From IMG/VR virus record IMGVR_UViG_2690316028_000008: a stretch of DNA of 7,242 nucleotides; one strand, written 5' to 3'. The stretch is from a virus. Lineage: Duplodnaviria; Heunggongvirae; Uroviricota; Caudoviricetes. The notes under the pieces are model-generated. The model did not search any database. It saw nothing but the letters and a program-made list of their open reading frames with translations, and had not been told where the DNA came from. Position numbers and translations under genes: made by a program. Each line of letters begins with the position of its first letter. Within the stretch, counting starts at the first letter, position 1. Below, one piece after another: positions 190 to 7,242 of the stretch.

Positions 190-1788
190 TTATAATTTCG
201 CATATATAGCATTAAACCAAGTTAATGTCTCGCCTTTTGCATCACTTGCAGTGAGCATTTGATAACTCATTTTTCCTGTAGCAAATTTATTTATCTTCTT
301 CTTCGCTTTACTTTCATTATAACGTGTTAAAGCAGATACCTCTGTTGATACATCTGTCGTATCATCTATGGTTATGTTTACACCAAACACCGCCTGAATA
401 GCATCAGGATGTAAATAATTTTCCATTTCCCTTTTTTCAGTCATGAATGCTATGGAACCATCATTTCTAGCATTTACTGACTTACATTCTTTTTCATACT
501 GAGGAGGGATGGCAACATCTCTATCATAGATGTGAACCTCAGGTTTATTTAGAATTTTTAAGTCATTATTATTAACCCAATCTTTAAGAGTATGTCCCCC
601 CATTGGAATGAAAACTATACGCGGATCATTTATCATATCAGGAACATTTGGAACACCTTGGTCGAGATAAATTTTACCGATATTCCTTAAAAAGTTTATA
701 TCATTAGGGCCTTCAACGCATACAAGAACAGATGCCCTACTATCAGGGTATACGCCAAGATCATTCGCTATGTTCTTTAGCACATCATCATTACCATTTT
801 TAACCTCTAAACCATCATCGAGTGTTCGGGTTATATGGCGTAGAGATTCTGTAGGTATCTTTTCCACAAGTGCAGGGACGTGGGTGGTAATCAATACTTG
901 GCATTTATCAGCATTTGCTAATTCTTGAAATGCATCAATAAGAAGTCTTTGATTAGATGGGTGTTGAGATGTTTCAGGTTCTTCAATTGCATAAATAACT
1001 CCTTTATCTGGGAATTCTTTTTGCAATCTTTCTGCTTCCGCTTTAAAAAAACTAATCAGGACTAAACGTCTAACACCACTACCACGTTTATTGATAGCTA
1101 TTCCTCTATCATCTTCCAATGTTAGCTTGAAAATATTTTCCCACTTAGGTTCCACTTTAAACTTTGGGATTAACCCGGCAGCAAGATTAGGAGATATATC
1201 ATGTAAATGTTTAATTGTGTTTTCAGCCACTTCAACTGCATGTTCTTTTACGCTTTCTTTAATGGATTCAAGTTGAATGTCAATCTTCTGCAATGCTGTT
1301 TGAACCGCTGACTTCATAGGATCCTGTACTTCTGATTCTTCATCGGTACTCGGCCTGTCTGCGCGGAATAATGCAAAGTGAGGGAGTTTGTCATATATTT
1401 TTTCACAAATAACCTTGCCCTCCTCAGCATTTAATTTAACGAAGATTTCTTTAAGCTTTAAATCTCCAATTTTCCTGTAAATTTCTTGTCTTAAACTAAC
1501 ATTGGACCTTTTATCAGCTCCATCAACACCAATAGATTCGGCAATTACTTTAAGTTCATCATTTTTTTTAGCAAGTAAAGATTTCGCGCCTTTTGCTGAG
1601 GGAGCCATACATTTAGCTTGAACGCTGCTAGATCCCTTACCTTTTGCAAATACTCTATATATTTCTAGCTTTCCATTACTATTTAATAAATATTCTTCTT
1701 TAAGGTTAGTTATAGATGTGGCATCCAAAACTATAGGTATATCAGCTCCTGAAAAGATACATCCAATTGACACGTCTTCATTTTCCAC
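190..1788 (-). CDS. OLD-family ATP-dependent endonuclease (ABC-type ATPase + C-terminal Toprim); frame as given starts at GTG and lacks the Walker A region, which lies upstream of an in-frame TAG
   Basis: ABC ATPase motifs: Walker B-like VIYAIEEPE, H-loop LITTHVP. Toprim motifs: VLVCVEGPND (nt ~709-729) and HIYDRD (nt ~517-525). The same frame continues upstream to ATG at 1977..1975 (MKLEKLIL-TAG-NFRGYHGEHSIDINSLTALVGRNDVGKTT) with Walker A GRNDVGKT at 1893..1867 and a GGAGA Shine-Dalgarno 3 nt before that ATG. No SD precedes the GTG at 1788. Family assignment is from motif recognition, not a search. Confidence 0.75.
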   Translation of the reverse strand: MENEDVSIGCIFSGADIPIVLDATSITNLKEEYLLNSNGKLEIYRVFAKGKGSSSVQAKCMAPSAKGAKSLLAKKNDELKVIAESIGVDGADKRSNVSLRQEIYRKIGDLKLKEIFVKLNAEEGKVICEKIYDKLPHFALFRADRPSTDEESEVQDPMKSAVQTALQKIDIQLESIKESVKEHAVEVAENTIKHLHDISPNLAAGLIPKFKVEPKWENIFKLTLEDDRGIAINKRGSGVRRLVLISFFKAEAERLQKEFPDKGVIYAIEEPETSQHPSNQRLLIDAFQELANADKCQVLITTHVPALVEKIPTESLRHITRTLDDGLEVKNGNDDVLKNIANDLGVYPDSRASVLVCVEGPNDINFLRNIGKIYLDQGVPNVPDMINDPRIVFIPMGGHTLKDWVNNNDLKILNKPEVHIYDRDVAIPPQYEKECKSVNARNDGSIAFMTEKREMENYLHPDAIQAVFGVNITIDDTTDVSTEVSALTRYNESKAKKKINKFATGKMSYQMLTASDAKGETLTWFNAIYAKL

Positions 1789-2317
1789 GCTATCGACACA
1801 TTTATCGGTAGCATCATATTTACATAGTTTATGTTCAAAGAAGACACCAAATGCGTCTAAGATAGTTGTTTTACCAACATCATTACGACCAACTAATGCA
1901 GTTAGTGAGTTAATGTCAATGCTATGTTCTCCATGATAGCCACGAAAGTTCTATAAGATTAGTTTTTCAAGTTTCATAAAAATCTCCATTTTTAAAAATT
2001 AAAATTTTATTTTTTAAAACTTACGCATTCGAAAAAACATTTGATTTTGTTGTATTCGAAGTAACAAGAACAATTTATAAAATTAGTTCAATCGAAGTCT
2101 TGGGTAAGACGCTTTTTCTCTTTAACAAAACGGATAACTACGCATTGGACAATAGATACTTTAGGAAACACGCGGAAAAATTGTAACGTTTTGCTCATTC
2201 TAGACCTGATATTCCTTCAAATTAGCAAGTTCGAGAGATAAGGGGAAATTACGATAGTCTACCAGAATCATTTCACACCTGCTCTAAACAATATGCAGAA
2301 AATAATATATGTATTTA

Positions 2318-2980
2318 TTAGTAAAGTTCTCCAGTTCCCTGATCTACACGTTTATAGAAATCAGAAAAATTACATGGGTCAGATATAACTGAGTTTTTAT
2401 CACTACGAAAATCAAATTCTATTTTTTTTATAAGATCAATGGCTGGTATAGTCGAATTTAAAGGGATTTTTTTATAGTTTCTAATTCTGTGATATTCAAT
2501 TGAGTCTAAGTCTACTTCAATCGCTTTATTACCAAAATAATAAAAATGATCTGAAATCAACACGTTATTAGAGCTAGTATCTCGTTCAAGATTTGTCATG
2601 TTAAATGAACCATCAGCATTGCTATGATGAGAATCTTCTTGTATCCATTCATTGTTTTCATTTTGATGGTAGATATTATCGCCCAGAATTTGTACATGAC
2701 TACCATTTCTAGCAGGCTTTTTGAGAGAGAACCTGGTATCCTCCCAATAACCATTGAAACTAATTTTTTCTGAAACTTTCATTAATAGGATACATTTTTT
2801 TTTAGCTGATTTTAAATTGGCTCCACCAACTCCGAGTATCCAATCACCCACTTTAGCTGACTTTCTAATTCCAGGTTTGCATGTTGCCAAGGTACAACTT
2901 CCATGAAATGGATTAGGTGCAAAACCAAAGTCTCTCGTTATTGCATAAACATAAAGGTGTGAGTTGGGATCAATTAGCAT
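2318..2980 (-). CDS. Hypothetical protein (220 aa), unknown function
   Basis: Uninterrupted 220-codon ORF, same strand as neighbours. ATG start overlaps the stop of the upstream gene (ATGCTAA). SD-like AAGGTGG about 9 nt upstream of the ATG. N-terminal region contains YAITRDFGFAPNPFHGSCTLATCKPG (Cys-x4-Cys); I do not recognise a family. Confidence 0.6.
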   Translation of the reverse strand: MLIDPNSHLYVYAITRDFGFAPNPFHGSCTLATCKPGIRKSAKVGDWILGVGGANLKSAKKKCILLMKVSEKISFNGYWEDTRFSLKKPARNGSHVQILGDNIYHQNENNEWIQEDSHHSNADGSFNMTNLERDTSSNNVLISDHFYYFGNKAIEVDLDSIEYHRIRNYKKIPLNSTIPAIDLIKKIEFDFRSDKNSVISDPCNFSDFYKRVDQGTGELY

Positions 2981-3465
2981 ACGACATTTCCACCTTGAAC
3001 TTTATCACGATCCGTACCATCAGGTTTTTCAAAGGAAGTTTTACCTTCTAGTGCGTTGATAATGGCATCACTTCTCCAGGCCACTATAGAGGTTGCATAC
3101 TTTTCGAGATTCTCTGGTAGTTTTACATCGCCTTTTAACCCATTTTCATATACACCTATGATTGGTTTTCCAAGTTGATGAGCTACTTGAATTTCCCAGT
3201 TTACCCAAGGTCTAGTATGTGTCTCTTTCCCGATAACAACTATAACTTGACTAGCCCACCTCATTTTCATTCTAAGTAAACGTGCAATCGTTCGGTCACT
3301 AAGTTTTTTTTCCTCAACTCGTCGCTGGTTTTCAGGTTTCATTCTAATAGAACTATTGCGTAAATGATAACCTTTTGCTGCAGCTAAACGAGAAACTCCA
3401 TCAACACTCGCGTCGTCTTTATGATGATGGCTAACAAAAACATTTTTCTTAATTTCTTTAACCAT
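2974..3465 (-). CDS. TIR-like domain protein (ThsB-like / DUF1863-type)
   Basis: 163-aa ORF with ATG start and AAGGA SD 7 nt upstream. N-terminal VFVSHHHKDD and central VVIGKETHTRPWVNWEIQVAHQLGKPIIGVYEN match the characteristic pattern of bacterial TIR-like (Thoeris ThsB-type) domains, including the conserved Glu in WVxxEI. Recognised by eye. Confidence 0.7.
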   Translation of the reverse strand: MVKEIKKNVFVSHHHKDDASVDGVSRLAAAKGYHLRNSSIRMKPENQRRVEEKKLSDRTIARLLRMKMRWASQVIVVIGKETHTRPWVNWEIQVAHQLGKPIIGVYENGLKGDVKLPENLEKYATSIVAWRSDAIINALEGKTSFEKPDGTDRDKVQGGNVVC

Positions 3466-3486: not shown

Positions 3487-4518
3487 CTAATTATAAAATA
3501 ATTCTATATTATTGCTTTGATAATGGTATTTTTGTTTAGGCCTTTTATTGTTAAATTTAGTTCGGCATCTTTTATCTATCTCGCATGCACCACTATTTTC
3601 CATGTCCATTAAGGTGTAAACTCTTTCTTCTTTAGGCAGGAAATGGAATATTTCATCCATGTTCCAATTTTCTCTATACTTTTCAGCGATGTTATTTTGG
3701 TTTATAGTGAACCAGAATAAACACTCTTCGCTATTCATTCCATCTCTATTAGAAAAAATCCAATTAATTCCTCTTTCACAACCAGGACCTGAAATAACAA
3801 AGTTCAATTCTGTAAACGGAAAGTTGGGTATGTATGTCAGATCTATGAAAATTTGATATGCTAGAAAATCCCCAATCCCTGAGAATGATTTTAAATGTTC
3901 AAAAACTTCGAACTGATTTCCTGATGATTTTACACCATTAACGATTTTATCTTGGTTATAATAAACAAATTTTATCATTCTAATTACCATATCATTTTCC
4001 GGTATTCCTTCTATATTTTTTAAGTATTTTCCGAAGTTAAACTTCGGACCTCCTAAAATATAGGCTGCACTAAAAAATACGTAGCCTGGTTTTTTTAATG
4101 ATATGTTTATTGTCTTTTCTCTGATCTTTTCATTGATGTCGCGAATAGTCATTTTTGTGAAATCAAAGGGCGCATCAAGTTCATTTAATGTATCGCTTTT
4201 ATTTATTACTCTAAACAAAAATGAATTGAGTATTTTATTTTCATAAGTTAATTTATTGTTGTTTGTTATATTTTTCAATAACCATTTGGTTTCTTTGTCC
4301 CATGTTCTTTTAGTATTTACAAATTTATAGTTTCTCAATATTTTGTCGTCTGTCCAATATGGCGGAAGGTTAAGTATCTCTTTCTTGTAATATATGGATG
4401 TCCTCTCTCGTTGATGATAAAACCATTCCTTGATAACAGCTTCATTCAAGGTAGGTTTAGCGGTTTTAATTTTCATTTCTCTGACATTACAAAAAAGTTG
4501 ATCGTTTTTACTGTTCAC
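3487..4518 (-). CDS. Hypothetical protein (343 aa), unknown function; contains a helix-hairpin-helix-like motif
   Basis: Long uninterrupted ORF co-directional with cluster. Start uncertain: GTG at 4518 overlaps the upstream gene by 11 nt; an alternative ATG at 4476 gives a 329-aa product. Motif FSGIGDFLAYQIFIDL resembles HhH nucleic-acid-binding hairpins. No P-loop. No family recognised with confidence. Confidence 0.6.
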   Translation of the reverse strand: MNSKNDQLFCNVREMKIKTAKPTLNEAVIKEWFYHQRERTSIYYKKEILNLPPYWTDDKILRNYKFVNTKRTWDKETKWLLKNITNNNKLTYENKILNSFLFRVINKSDTLNELDAPFDFTKMTIRDINEKIREKTINISLKKPGYVFFSAAYILGGPKFNFGKYLKNIEGIPENDMVIRMIKFVYYNQDKIVNGVKSSGNQFEVFEHLKSFSGIGDFLAYQIFIDLTYIPNFPFTELNFVISGPGCERGINWIFSNRDGMNSEECLFWFTINQNNIAEKYRENWNMDEIFHFLPKEERVYTLMDMENSGACEIDKRCRTKFNNKRPKQKYHYQSNNIELFYN

Positions 4519-5065
4519 TTAATAATACCTTTTCGAAGAAATGTTTAAAACTATCAATTCCGTTCACATTGTTGTCAAAATGATATTCTGATTTTGTTTT
4601 ATTCTCAGTGACATACTTGTCGATTTCGTATTTTTTATAATTATTATTTTCCCGTTCTATATGTACTATAGTGAACTGATTGTTCTTACACCATGCGAAT
4701 TCTTCATTTGATCTTATGTCAGTAATTATTATATTTTTATTCGTCCCTCCATTTTTTTCTAAAATTTTCAACTCTTCTGATAGCATTCTAATAAATATTT
4801 TTTCTTCAATTTTCCTTAGGCTGTCTAAGCTCAGCCATATATCTCTTGGTGAATGGCTGATAAAGTCGCCGGTAGGTAAGGTTATATTGAGTGGTAACAT
4901 TTTATTTTCAGGTGGGTAATCCTTTTCCATCCAAGGATAAATATAATTGGCCAATTTTTTGAGTTGATCGCTAAATGATAATCTAATAAATCCATAGTTG
5001 GATATCAGATAATTGGCAAGAAAGTCTTTTCCACTACCCGATATGCCCATGAATGCAATTTTCAT
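4508..5065 (-). CDS. P-loop nucleotide kinase, deoxynucleoside-monophosphate-kinase-like
   Basis: 185-aa ORF. N-terminus MKIAFMGISGSGKDFLANYL has a Walker A/P-loop at the extreme N-terminus, as in phage T4-type dNMP kinases (MKLIFLSGVKRSGKD...). ATG (5065..5063) overlaps the TGA stop of the upstream TS-like gene (ATGA), suggesting translational coupling. Confidence 0.7.
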   Translation of the reverse strand: MKIAFMGISGSGKDFLANYLISNYGFIRLSFSDQLKKLANYIYPWMEKDYPPENKMLPLNITLPTGDFISHSPRDIWLSLDSLRKIEEKIFIRMLSEELKILEKNGGTNKNIIITDIRSNEEFAWCKNNQFTIVHIERENNNYKKYEIDKYVTENKTKSEYHFDNNVNGIDSFKHFFEKVLLSEQ

Positions 5066-6147
5066 AGACGGTCCTTATTAGAATTATTAAAATAATTAGA
5101 AGTTACGCTTAGATTGAAATCATTGCTTAACTTAGTTTTTAACACTATTGGTTGATTGAATCTTTCCTGGAAAATATATGATAGAGCTGCTTCTGCATAT
5201 CCCCAAAGTAAATTCCTTTCAGTTTCTACAAAGTGTTTAATAAATATTTTTTTTAGATTTTCGGTTTCCATATCTATTGTGTCTATTTTATGTTCATTTT
5301 CTGTTATTATTCTTTCAAGGAATGAAACTATATCACAGAATAATGATTTTATATTTTGTAACGATGGAGGGAATGATATTTCATCATCGTTTATCAAATC
5401 TGTCATTTGTTCTTCTTTTCTTTCGTATATTTCATTGGCTTGTCCTACTCTATCATCATATATATGAAGATTTGTTACTGATTGATGTAAGTATCCCAGT
5501 TTAATCTCGCTATCAACTTCCCTCTGTAATATTGAAAGTACTATCTCTTGAAGTAAACTAAACTCGAAAAGATTTATATTGCTCACTCCAAATATTAGAT
5601 CGCCGCTTCTTTGAACTATTTTAATGTTTAAATTTTTGTCAGGAGTGATAAAGAAATGAATTAAGTTATTACAAGGAATATCGACACTATGTTCTATGTT
5701 GTATACTTTTATGAGGCTTTCATTCGTATCTCTGTCAGGCATGTATAAGCTAATGACTGCTCTTCTTGTAAATATTCCTTCTTTTTTGAATTGTTGCACG
5801 ACATTCTCAAGTTGCCCGTGAGCGTATAGTCTTTCCCCATAAGCTGCTCGCCAAATGACACCATCATCTGAGTATTTAGGCGCTCTTGGTAAAAAAAAAT
5901 TTAGATATGGTTTAATTCTGTTGTCGCCAGCAAAAACCCATATAGCTTCAGCAAATGTGGAAAATATATTATTTTTTCGACCCGCTAAACTTAAATGCCT
6001 TGATCTAGGGTTTCGTAAGATCATACTAACATCATAAATAGTTATAGCATCCCCATTCCTTGTCGAAATACGAACTCCTTCATTAAGCACTTTTTCTAGG
6101 AGTTTCATTATTACATCGTTAATAGTTTCTCCGTAAATGACGTGCAT
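5062..6147 (-). CDS. Thymidylate synthase superfamily enzyme (ThyA-like; possibly a dNMP C5-methylase or hydroxymethylase) with C-terminal extension
   Basis: Motif-by-motif correspondence with E. coli ThyA: KVLNEG (KVLDEG), EAIWVFAGDN (ELLWFLQGDT), TRRAVISLY (SRRIIVSAW), DIPCNN (APCH, catalytic Cys; codon at 5673..5671), QRSGDLIFGVSNINLFEFSLL ([20 protein letters not shown]), HIY (HLY). About 115 extra C-terminal residues with no TS counterpart. ATG at 6147 preferred over the upstream in-frame TTG at 6153 because SD GAGG lies 8 nt before the ATG. Confidence 0.8.
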   Translation of the reverse strand: MHVIYGETINDVIMKLLEKVLNEGVRISTRNGDAITIYDVSMILRNPRSRHLSLAGRKNNIFSTFAEAIWVFAGDNRIKPYLNFFLPRAPKYSDDGVIWRAAYGERLYAHGQLENVVQQFKKEGIFTRRAVISLYMPDRDTNESLIKVYNIEHSVDIPCNNLIHFFITPDKNLNIKIVQRSGDLIFGVSNINLFEFSLLQEIVLSILQREVDSEIKLGYLHQSVTNLHIYDDRVGQANEIYERKEEQMTDLINDDEISFPPSLQNIKSLFCDIVSFLERIITENEHKIDTIDMETENLKKIFIKHFVETERNLLWGYAEAALSYIFQERFNQPIVLKTKLSNDFNLSVTSNYFNNSNKDRL

Positions 6148-7057
6148 AAACAAAACCTCATGCTATAAAAACATCTTTTTAGTTGATATAGTTTATTGGG
6201 CCTAATCCAGAATTTGGTCCAGCTATGATCTGGACTAACCGGATAGCACGTTTCAATCTCTTGCCTCTAAGAACAGGCTCGAACGTGATAGCCAATTGGC
6301 TTCCCACTTAGCAAGTGAGACCTCGACCCACGCTACCGCCCTCAGTTGCATAGGCACTGCGTTTGTATGAACATTTACAAATGTTACTCATGTTATGGGT
6401 TTGGTCAATCTGGCAATAAGATAATTACGAAACTTTAGACTTATTACTTAAGTGGAGGTGGCGCGAGTCGCTAGCGAGTAAGACTGTCTCTTATATGTAC
6501 CAGAAGCACAACTGACGATGCTCCAAAATCATAGTCACCGCTGCGTAGCAAGCTGTGGCCTCTCGCTACTCCCGGGTGCCCCAGTTACAACGTTGTGGGT
6601 TGCATAAGAAATCTGTCCCGCCGGATTAGAGTGGTGGTGGATTACTGACTGTACTCTGCGTTCAATACAGAGACAGCCCGGAACAGGCAGTAATTGATGC
6701 CGGAACGAGACTATTTAAGAACAAACCGCCCCCGGTTAGCAGGATCGTCTCGGCCGGCAGGAAAGCATGCTAACACCTACATGAAGTCCCTGTCAGTGCA
6801 GGCCCCAGACTCAACACCACCAATCTACTTTTCACCACTGCGAAGTAAGGGGCGCTACGCCCGGTTATGCAGGGGCAGTTTTTCTCCTGTGCGCTTTTCG
6901 TTCCTCTATCGGCTTCCTGTTAATCGTTTCCCAACACAACCCGTCCCGCAAGGGTAAATGGCACGCATGCTGCGCCCTTGCAGGACAGAACGATGTCGGG
7001 AAAGCGAACCGTCAGGCGATACGAAGACGAAAATCACACACTGACGGAGAAAAAACG

Positions 7058-7237
7058 ATGACGATTTCCCTGCATACCACCCGGACAAGCGCCCCTAACA
7101 CCGCAGCGGCGACCAGCGTATCCCCGCTGGACCCGTCAGGCTCCTCAAAAACGAAATTTTCTAAAACCAGAACCGACATTTACCGTAAGCGTCGTCTGAG
7201 TACCGTCTGGTCCCGAATCCAGGATCCTGTAACTTAA
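7058..7237 (+). CDS. Hypothetical small protein (59 aa), Ser/Thr/Pro/Arg-rich
   Basis: ATG at 7058 preceded by GGAGA about 8 nt upstream; ORF runs to TAA at 7235-7237 (MTISLHTTRTSAPNTAAATSVSPLDPSGSSKTKFSKTRTDIYRKRRLSTVWSRIQDPVT). Just below the 60-aa ORF-track cutoff. No family recognised; could be a remnant. Confidence 0.3.
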   Translation: MTISLHTTRTSAPNTAAATSVSPLDPSGSSKTKFSKTRTDIYRKRRLSTVWSRIQDPVT

Positions 7238-7242
7238 GCACC

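Follow-up and report, generated by a model that had tools for sequence, protein, structure and literature searches.

Which function is carried out by a protein that is encoded, in one operon, between a P-loop kinase and a TIR protein? This question is raised by ORF4, an open reading frame (ORF) on the minus strand of a 7,242-nucleotide stretch of DNA (IMG/VR record IMGVR_UViG_2690316028_000008; the whole stretch is called the window in the following), the product of which an earlier note, made from the letters alone, had regarded as an unknown protein. ORF4 is not unknown since it is a member of a curated Pfam family: it matches PF18723 (HMUDK_hel, formerly aGPT-Pplase clade 1) with E=4e-53 and 181 bits against a cut-off of 25, and the match covers residues 28-324, i.e., positions 3-278 of the 281-position profile. 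As the work of the Aravind group is relayed in two later papers, this family is a DNA-glycosylase-like protein adjoining P-loop kinases in thymidine-hypermodifying phages (via PMC8989533, PMC5889632). Moreover, judged by its sequence ORF4 is the third gene of an operon orthologous to the published anti-phage system DS-4 and is to this extent already known. With slightly better than even odds (about 0.55), ORF4 is the clade-1 protein of a DS-4-type operon and acts, with a coupled kinase, as a base-flipping, cysteine-dependent enzyme on hydroxymethyl-uracil, probably in DNA; the specific chemistry would have to be given a lower confidence than this overall figure.

The gene, its fold and its near-invariant residues

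ORF4 and its elements are located in the window as follows.
3487-4518, minus strand: ORF4, clade-1 aGPT-Pplase/HMUDK_hel protein, 343 aa, RefSeq WP_002911704.1, orthologue of DS-4C
4516-4534, minus strand: translation start of ORF4, GTG at 4518-4516 with the Shine-Dalgarno-like GAAAAGG at 4534-4528, in the 3'-terminal part of the kinase gene (from the sequence, conserved N-terminal residues and PGAP)
3835-3915, minus strand: helix-hairpin-helix (HhH) element, residues 202-228, hairpin S-G214-I-G216, then the invariant Q222, D226 and Y229 (from the secondary structure of the model, the motif and conservation)
3571-3609, minus strand: putative active-site motif M-D-M-E307-N308-S-G-A-C312-E313-I-D-K316 (from conservation in 203 members and hhalign)

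As the earlier note had it, ORF4 is an intact reading frame of 343 codons (GTG start at 4518, stop at 3487) that lies between the P-loop kinase gene (4508-5065), with an 11-nt overlap, and the TIR gene (2974-3465), with a 21-nt gap; 343 codons in a row without a stop have a probability of ~2e-14 at the local base composition. The choice between the GTG and an ATG at 4476, which had been left undecided, is settled in favor of the GTG at 4518, since it is the earliest possible start in the frame, since D6 and V12, which lie upstream of the ATG among the fourteen residues gained, are at least 90% conserved among homologues down to 36% identity, since the Shine-Dalgarno sequence GAAAAGG (4528-4534) precedes it with a 9-nt spacer, and since RefSeq/PGAP annotates the same start for a gene of 1032 nt. 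ORF4 is a real gene, correctly annotated in RefSeq and ordinary as a sequence feature. Scans for promoters and terminators yielded chance level only, and an Rfam scan of the window yielded no RNA gene.

The AlphaFold (AF2) model of ORF4, with a predicted local distance difference test score (pLDDT) of 93.4 and a predicted template modelling score (pTM) of 0.91, presents an all-alpha, DNA-glycosylase-like fold with an HhH element composed of a helix (202-210), the hairpin and a second helix (216-228). With L209 included, the peptide FSGIGDFLAYQIFIDL, which spans residues 212-227 (3838-3885 of the window), conforms to the HhH signature h-x-x-h-x-G-h-G-x-x-x-A-x-x-h, and signature and model helices bear out the HhH DNA-binding hairpin that had been suspected. 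The predicted fold is of a nucleic-acid-binding type and not an unrelated one, and the protein is basic with a calculated pI of 9.05. The model is closest to the solved clade-2 amino-acid:DNA transferase (AADT) PUGT and to HhH DNA glycosylases, the nearest solved relative being PUGT itself, a phage 5-phosphomethyl-dU:glycine transferase. At the level of homology and fold, both the proposed DNA- or nucleotide-handling role (PF18723, HhH fold) and the more speculative idea of a base-modifying enzyme in a cluster resembling those for thymidine hypermodification (PF18723, phage homologues) turn out to be essentially right.

The RefSeq name of ORF4, 'nucleotide kinase domain-containing protein', is misleading, and the protein itself is no kinase: it contains no Walker A motif and matches no kinase-family profile in Pfam or NCBIfam, and on the same grounds it was ruled out that ORF4 is the 5-hydroxymethyldeoxyuridine (5-hmdU) DNA kinase proper (PF18748 HMUD1 or PF18747 HMUD2). 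A sequence search of the PDB resulted in nothing beyond one chance match (E=1), a Foldseek search was uninformative, and neither PADLOC nor NCBIfam holds a model matching ORF4.

Conservation was counted in an alignment of 203 members spanning the PF18723 family. Twelve residues, all present in ORF4, are each kept in 194-202 of the 203 members (R39, F66, R71, D74, F218, Q222, D226, Y229, N308, C312, E313 and K316). In the HhH region these are Q222 (202/203), Y229 (201/203) and D226 (200/203), next to G216 with 155/203; in the C-terminal motif N308 is kept in 194 members and C312, E313 and K316 in 197 each. The near-invariance of nine polar residues (R39, R71, D74, Q222, D226, N308, C312, E313, K316) across the family suggests an active site and argues for an enzyme instead of a passive 'helical domain'. 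From the claim that ORF4 shows neither a P-loop nor an obvious catalytic signature, the first half stands, and the second was too strong in view of the invariant Cys-Glu-x-x-Lys motif.

The comparison with clade 2 suggests what this motif might do. In two hhalign runs, one with M6 gp51 by itself and the other with a clade-2 profile of 17 sequences, an identical register was obtained, which places the HhH of ORF4 on the HhH of gp51 and E307-N308...C312 on E243-T244...C247 of gp51; the match of the clade-1 and clade-2 profiles has E=0.006 and a probability of just 6%, with the register of E307-N308...C312 consistent. C247 is the catalytic cysteine of PUGT that attacks C6 (PMC11472151), and the Glu-Thr pair ligates the essential metal in Pplase2 of phage 15599 (PMC13458397). 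The Cys-Glu-x-x-Lys motif of ORF4 is hence described as a putative active site that aligns with the catalytic cysteine of PUGT. ORF4 and the clade-2 AADT (PF18724: M6 gp51, ViI gp247, PaMx11 gp46/PUGT with PDB entries 8Z2M/8Z2N, YuA Pplase2) are both HhH-containing all-alpha proteins, and a motif E-[TN]-x-x-(x)-C aligns with the metal ligands and Cys247 at the 6% profile-profile probability mentioned. However, identity is 7% in the structural alignment, R39, R71, D74, Q222, E313 and K316 are invariant in clade 1 but not in the clade-2 alignment, and ORF4 has no PF18724 match at E<=0.01, whereas M6 gp51 scores 1e-46.

The fold also resembles that of the HhH-GPD glycosylases (EndoIII/Nth, AlkA, Mag1, OGG, MutY) and of the nucleotide hydrolase QNG1/DUF2419. 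In EndoIII-type HhH-GPD enzymes the catalytic Asp follows the hairpin glycine by about 20-21 residues. ORF4 differs from these glycosylases in that it has no HhH-GPD (PF00730) match at E<=0.01, shares 5-16% identity with them and carries the Cys-Glu-Lys motif instead of their Lys/Asp signature; its genomic context is base modification, whereas theirs is repair.

The operon, DS-4 and the phage homologues

DS-4 (working name NTTI) is a five-gene anti-phage system of E. coli that came from DefensePredictor and was validated there, if weakly, against phage lambda (DeWeirdt et al., Science 2026; PMC13092281), with the order thymidylate synthase (TS)-like enzyme, deoxynucleoside monophosphate (dNMP) kinase, HMUDK_hel protein, TIR protein and Nmad2 (PMC13092281). 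With DS-4 the 5-hmdU kinase and thymidylate synthase domains were recorded as newly validated in defence, and its phenotype is a single row of Table S7 (lambda, smaller plaques, -log efficiency of plating (EOP) 0.93); a mechanism is not proposed (PMC13092281), and no later literature on the mechanism of DS-4 was found. ORF4 is 77% identical to DS-4C (WP_087900470.1) over its full length (341 aligned residues), and the DS-4 kinase and TS sequences of Table S8 are visibly collinear with the window proteins. The Nmad2 of the window locus (WP_023143489.1) is listed as a predicted defence gene in Table S5 (PMC13092281). The two operons share the five-gene order, the host species and the mobile-element context; they differ in that the window allele is ~23% divergent in amino acids (ORF4 against DS-4C) and lies in an integrative and conjugative element (ICE) beside an OLD-like ATPase and a multi-TIR cluster. 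The lambda phenotype was measured on DS-4, not on the window allele.

The partners of ORF4 are encoded as follows.
5062-6153, minus strand: TS-like enzyme, probably a (d)UMP 5-hydroxymethylase, start possibly at ATG 6147 (PF00303, 1e-16)
4508-5065, minus strand: P-loop kinase of the T4-type dNMP-kinase family, 185 aa, the stop of its gene overlapping with the start of ORF4 (PF21448 DNMK, 40.6 bits against a cut-off of 27.1)
2974-3465, minus strand: ThsB-like TIR protein, 163 aa, 21 nt downstream of ORF4 (PF08937, 4e-20; PADLOC ThsB1, 4e-73)
2318-2980, minus strand: Nmad2, 220 aa, predicted PUA-like fold, 7-nt overlap with the TIR gene
2318-3465 of the window, 6516-7666 of locus L101 and 6519-7666 of locus L102: pair of TIR (~163 aa) and Nmad2 (~221 aa)
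190-1920, minus strand: AAA_15/OLD-GajA-AriA-like ATPase, outside the conserved operon

The operon lies on the minus strand at ~30% G+C, and its junctions (TS/kinase/ORF4/TIR/Nmad2) measure -4, -11, +21 and -7 nt. Its conservation was scanned with one genome per species, which yielded 12 gammaproteobacterial loci, from Phytobacter, Atlantibacter, Erwinia (two species), Serratia, Brenneria, Buttiauxella, Citrobacter, Photobacterium, Xenorhabdus, Colwellia and Aeromonas. The order TS-kinase-ORF4-TIR-Nmad2 is kept in all 12, and in each of them the kinase stop overlaps the ORF4 start; ORF4 is absent from none of these clusters. In Agarivorans all five genes are present in two divergent units, TS-kinase-ORF4 and TIR-Nmad2. 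In most species loci the TIR gene is better conserved than any other gene of the operon, with 89-100% in L009-L018 and lower values in Colwellia and Aeromonas, the two most distant loci.

The same pairing of ORF4 with a kinase is found in phages. A total of 399 phage records, most of them from ViI-like Ackermannviridae, contain ORF4 homologues with ~31% identity. In phage M6, the PF18723 protein gp55 (8e-56) follows directly after the validated 5-hmdU DNA kinase gp54, with Nmad5 and TS-like gp58 a short way downstream of gp55. The phage-like contig L004 carries an overlapping kinase/ORF4-homologue pair whose members are 49% (kinase) and 48% (ORF4 homologue) identical to those of the window, amid genes for AADT, HMUD2, an amidotransferase and an acetyltransferase, and in contig L005 an HMUD2 kinase overlaps the ORF4 homologue. 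An exhaustive profile search resulted in 5,177 clusters of the PF18723 family. Natural fusions include Thymidylate_kin+HMUDK_hel, HMUDK_hel+HMUD1 and glycosyltransferase+HMUDK_hel, and one member is fused to an N6/N4 methyltransferase. The coupling of ORF4 to a kinase is read from the overlapping stop and start in every locus, the phage pairs, M6 gp54-gp55 and the kinase fusions: ORF4 is translationally coupled to a P-loop dNMP-type kinase, with the TS-like enzyme, TIR and Nmad2 always alongside.

The phage members of PF18723 (M6 gp55, ViI-like proteins) have the same invariant residues and the same full-length domain match as ORF4 and are likewise paired with a P-loop kinase and a TS-like hydroxymethylase. 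ViI gp160 is presumably a further member of the family, as would be expected. However, the phage proteins are only 23-31% identical to ORF4, which is bacterial and stands in a defence operon with TIR and Nmad2, whereas they stand in hypermodification clusters with AADT, pyridoxal-phosphate (PLP) and radical S-adenosylmethionine (SAM) enzymes; moreover, the partner kinase of ORF4 is of the DNMK type and those of the phages are HMUD1 or HMUD2. Among 58 viral loci, the commonest neighbors of PF18723 genes are a dCMP deaminase (43), a D5-type primase (31) and a TET-associated glycosyltransferase (13), by which a universal adjacency of the kinase in the family was rejected. In a large clade of gut-phage contigs (L029-L100, IMG/VR) the PF18723 gene also stands beside an HD-like protein with no kinase nearby, which hints at a hydroxymethyl-pyrimidine glycosylation pathway employing the same domain. 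Since the neighbors vary in this way, the HMUDK_hel domain works together with several kinds of base-modifying enzymes.

Two side observations concern distant homologues. In Gracilibacteria-like homologues (P0038, P0039, P0042) a W stands at a conserved G, and the translation of locus L007 8001-9002 disagrees with the query, as would fit a UGA that encodes Gly (code 25) but was mistranslated in the source. The ORF4 homologue of L007 has neither a TS nor a kinase neighbor.

The TS-like protein is probably a (d)UMP 5-hydroxymethylase. Its best solved relative is the CMP 5-hydroxymethylase MilA (2e-14, versus 1e-6 or worse for true thymidylate synthases), it is 29% identical to the M6 hydroxymethylase gp58, and an Asn aligns with the site that specifies the base, Asn in TS and Asp in MilA, and because the aligned residue is Asn a uracil substrate is suggested. 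The TTG start of its gene (6153) is probably wrong, as judged from the N-terminus of DS-4A, which matches from the third codon, the equivalent of ATG 6147; the PGAP product has 348 aa.

Nmad2 has a predicted PUA-like fold of the kind that reads modified bases. It is far more widespread than ORF4, with 7,082 matches and an identity that is still 62-66% in distant phyla (Cellvibrio, Thiocapsa, Rhizobium). The first two of these genera have the overlapping TIR-Nmad2 pair together with TIR-SLOG (LD_cluster2), MazG_C (a predicted nucleotide kinase) and a uracil-DNA glycosylase (UDG)-like protein, and in these loci the MazG_C, TIR-SLOG and UDG-like genes replace TS, kinase and HMUDK_hel. As the TIR-Nmad2 pair is joined to other partner genes there, this suggests a modular design with a conserved core of TIR and reader and a variable 'kinase + glycosylase-fold' module. 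Newly described here are the invariant polar residues of the ORF4 family, the domain fusions with three kinds of partner enzyme, the widespread TIR-Nmad2 core and the predicted PUA-like fold of Nmad2.

A conditional mechanism and its competitors

If ORF4 is a cysteine-dependent enzyme, the operon might work as follows. The TS-like enzyme would make 5-hydroxymethyl-dUMP, and the kinase would take this towards the triphosphate and/or phosphorylate the 5-hydroxymethyl group. ORF4 would bind the hydroxymethyl-pyrimidine, most likely once it is in DNA, flipping the base into a pocket lined by R39, R71, D74, Q222, D226, N308, C312, E313 and K316. There, Cys312 may attack C6, as in clade 2, and a metal site at E307/N308 may activate the 5-CH2-O(P) substituent, by which 5-hydroxymethyluracil (hmU) or 5-phosphomethyldeoxyuridine (5-PmdU) would be turned into a further thymine derivative. 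The mark or product might finally be read by the PUA-like Nmad2 and acted on by the TIR protein.

Several observations weigh against this mechanism. There is no evidence so far of modified DNA in operon-carrying E. coli, and the literature reports a biochemical activity for no clade-1 protein. In phage M6, gp55 is dispensable in vitro for phosphorylation and glycine transfer (PMC8989533). Most phage contigs have no kinase adjacent to the gene but dCMP deaminase or TET-associated glycosyltransferase neighbors instead, and the DS-4 phenotype is weak, an 8.6-fold lower EOP with lambda only. Moreover, the window kinase shows no similarity to M6 gp54 and ViI gp67. A 'split 5-HMUDK identical to phage enzyme' was dropped for this reason, and the window kinase may act on free nucleotides only since it is of the dNMP-kinase type, unlike M6 gp54 and ViI gp67.

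The close tie to the kinase could alternatively mean that ORF4 is a non-catalytic helical subunit of it, which flips out 5-hmdU and presents the base to the P-loop kinase. This is unlikely, even though bacteria and phages alike keep the overlapping kinase-ORF4 pair, fusions of the domain with Thymidylate_kin-type and HMUD1 kinases occur, and an HhH base-flipping fold with a basic pI of 9.05 would suit it. A scaffold needs no invariant Cys-Glu-x-x-Lys and six more polar residues kept in ~200/203 members, M6 gp54 phosphorylates hmU-DNA without gp55 (PMC8989533), other fusions of the domain are with glycosyltransferase and N6/N4 methyltransferase, and in gut-phage contigs the neighboring kinase is usually absent.

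It is rather improbable that ORF4 acts on free nucleotides, like the HhH-like queuosine-5'-phosphate hydrolase QNG1, so that a modified pyrimidine nucleotide built with the TS-like enzyme and the dNMP kinase would serve as toxic polymerase analogue or as signal or substrate for TIR-Nmad2. The kinase does fall into the nucleotide-kinase families DNMK/Thymidylate_kin and not into HMUD1/HMUD2, and sister systems join TIR-Nmad2 to MazG_C and TIR-SLOG, which is typical of nucleotide signalling. However, ORF4 retains an intact, conserved HhH hairpin, the element that contacts the DNA backbone, its closest characterised relatives (clade 2) act on double-stranded DNA (PMC11472151), and its phage homologues stand in clusters for post-replicative DNA hypermodification.

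That ORF4 is a DNA glycosylase excising hmU or a derivative, in an operon that introduces hmU into replicating phage DNA, to be followed by nicking through base excision, is very improbable: E237, 21 residues past the hairpin glycine and acidic in 191/203 members, is equivalent to the EndoIII-type Asp by spacing only, and a UDG-like gene, on this account the analogue of ORF4, does replace the ORF4 module in the Cellvibrio and Thiocapsa sister systems, but ORF4 has no Pfam HhH-GPD match at E<=0.01 and 5-16% identity to glycosylases, its best structural match is a transferase, and an invariant Cys beside Glu is the hallmark of C6-attack pyrimidine chemistry and not of glycosylases.

A catalytic ORF4 also allows a further-reaching and rather improbable proposal, that of a 'write-then-read' immunity: the TS-like enzyme, the kinase and an active ORF4, working as Cys312-dependent C5-methylene transferase or lyase, would install an hmU-derived mark on fast-replicating DNA, or make a nucleotide, and Nmad2 would read it and activate TIR. 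If true, the clade-1 aGPT-Pplase family as a whole (>5,000 clusters) would thereby gain its first activity, and the TIR-Nmad2 core would read other self-made marks in the sister systems with MazG_C and a UDG-like protein. If the operon uses phage-type thymine-hypermodification enzymes for defence, bacteria would be turning a phage counter-defence pathway on phages. As a gene ORF4 is already known (PF18723, DS-4C orthologue), and the Cys-Glu-Lys motif and a candidate reader role of Nmad2 are leads to the chemistry. The family spans thousands of phage, bacterial and archaeal clusters.

Genomic setting

Among 5,426 complete E. coli genomes, 12 carry a chromosomal island that matches the window with 99.9% identity, and the DNA of ORF4 is found in 16, never plasmid-borne. 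The island is ICE cargo beside ArdC, MobC and a VirB-type secretion system. From 6250 to 7242 the G+C content of the window rises from 0.30 to 0.54, corresponding to the ICE backbone, and the ORF from 7058 is the N-terminus of an ArdC-family gene annotated in L001, one of the matching loci. Past the low-coordinate end of the window, L001 10986-14889 encodes a hypothetical protein, two TIR proteins, a TIR-domain protein (397 aa) and a further hypothetical protein; as this cluster is on the same island, the ICE cargo holds four TIR genes within ~12 kb.

The AAA_15 ATPase resembles AriA, GajA and OLD and has 532 aa from its GTG versus 576 aa in PGAP. A 397-nt gap separates its gene from the operon. 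Beside the operon it occurs only in L009 and L010, the two closest loci (Phytobacter and Atlantibacter), by which a role as sixth operon component was rejected, and it is probably a separate defence gene.

In Aeromonas simiae (L020 8046-9181) tblastn splits the TIR and Nmad2 genes into two frames, and in a Colwellia metagenome-assembled genome (L019 6443-6996) it splits the kinase gene in the same way; while the operons are otherwise intact, these genes may be frameshifted pseudogenes or reflect errors of assembly. In some E. coli genomes (matches H7, H13 and H15) insertions of IS1A, IS3 or ISSen4 interrupt or flank the island, and a second E. coli allele group, 92-93% identical, is found without the ATPase side of the window.

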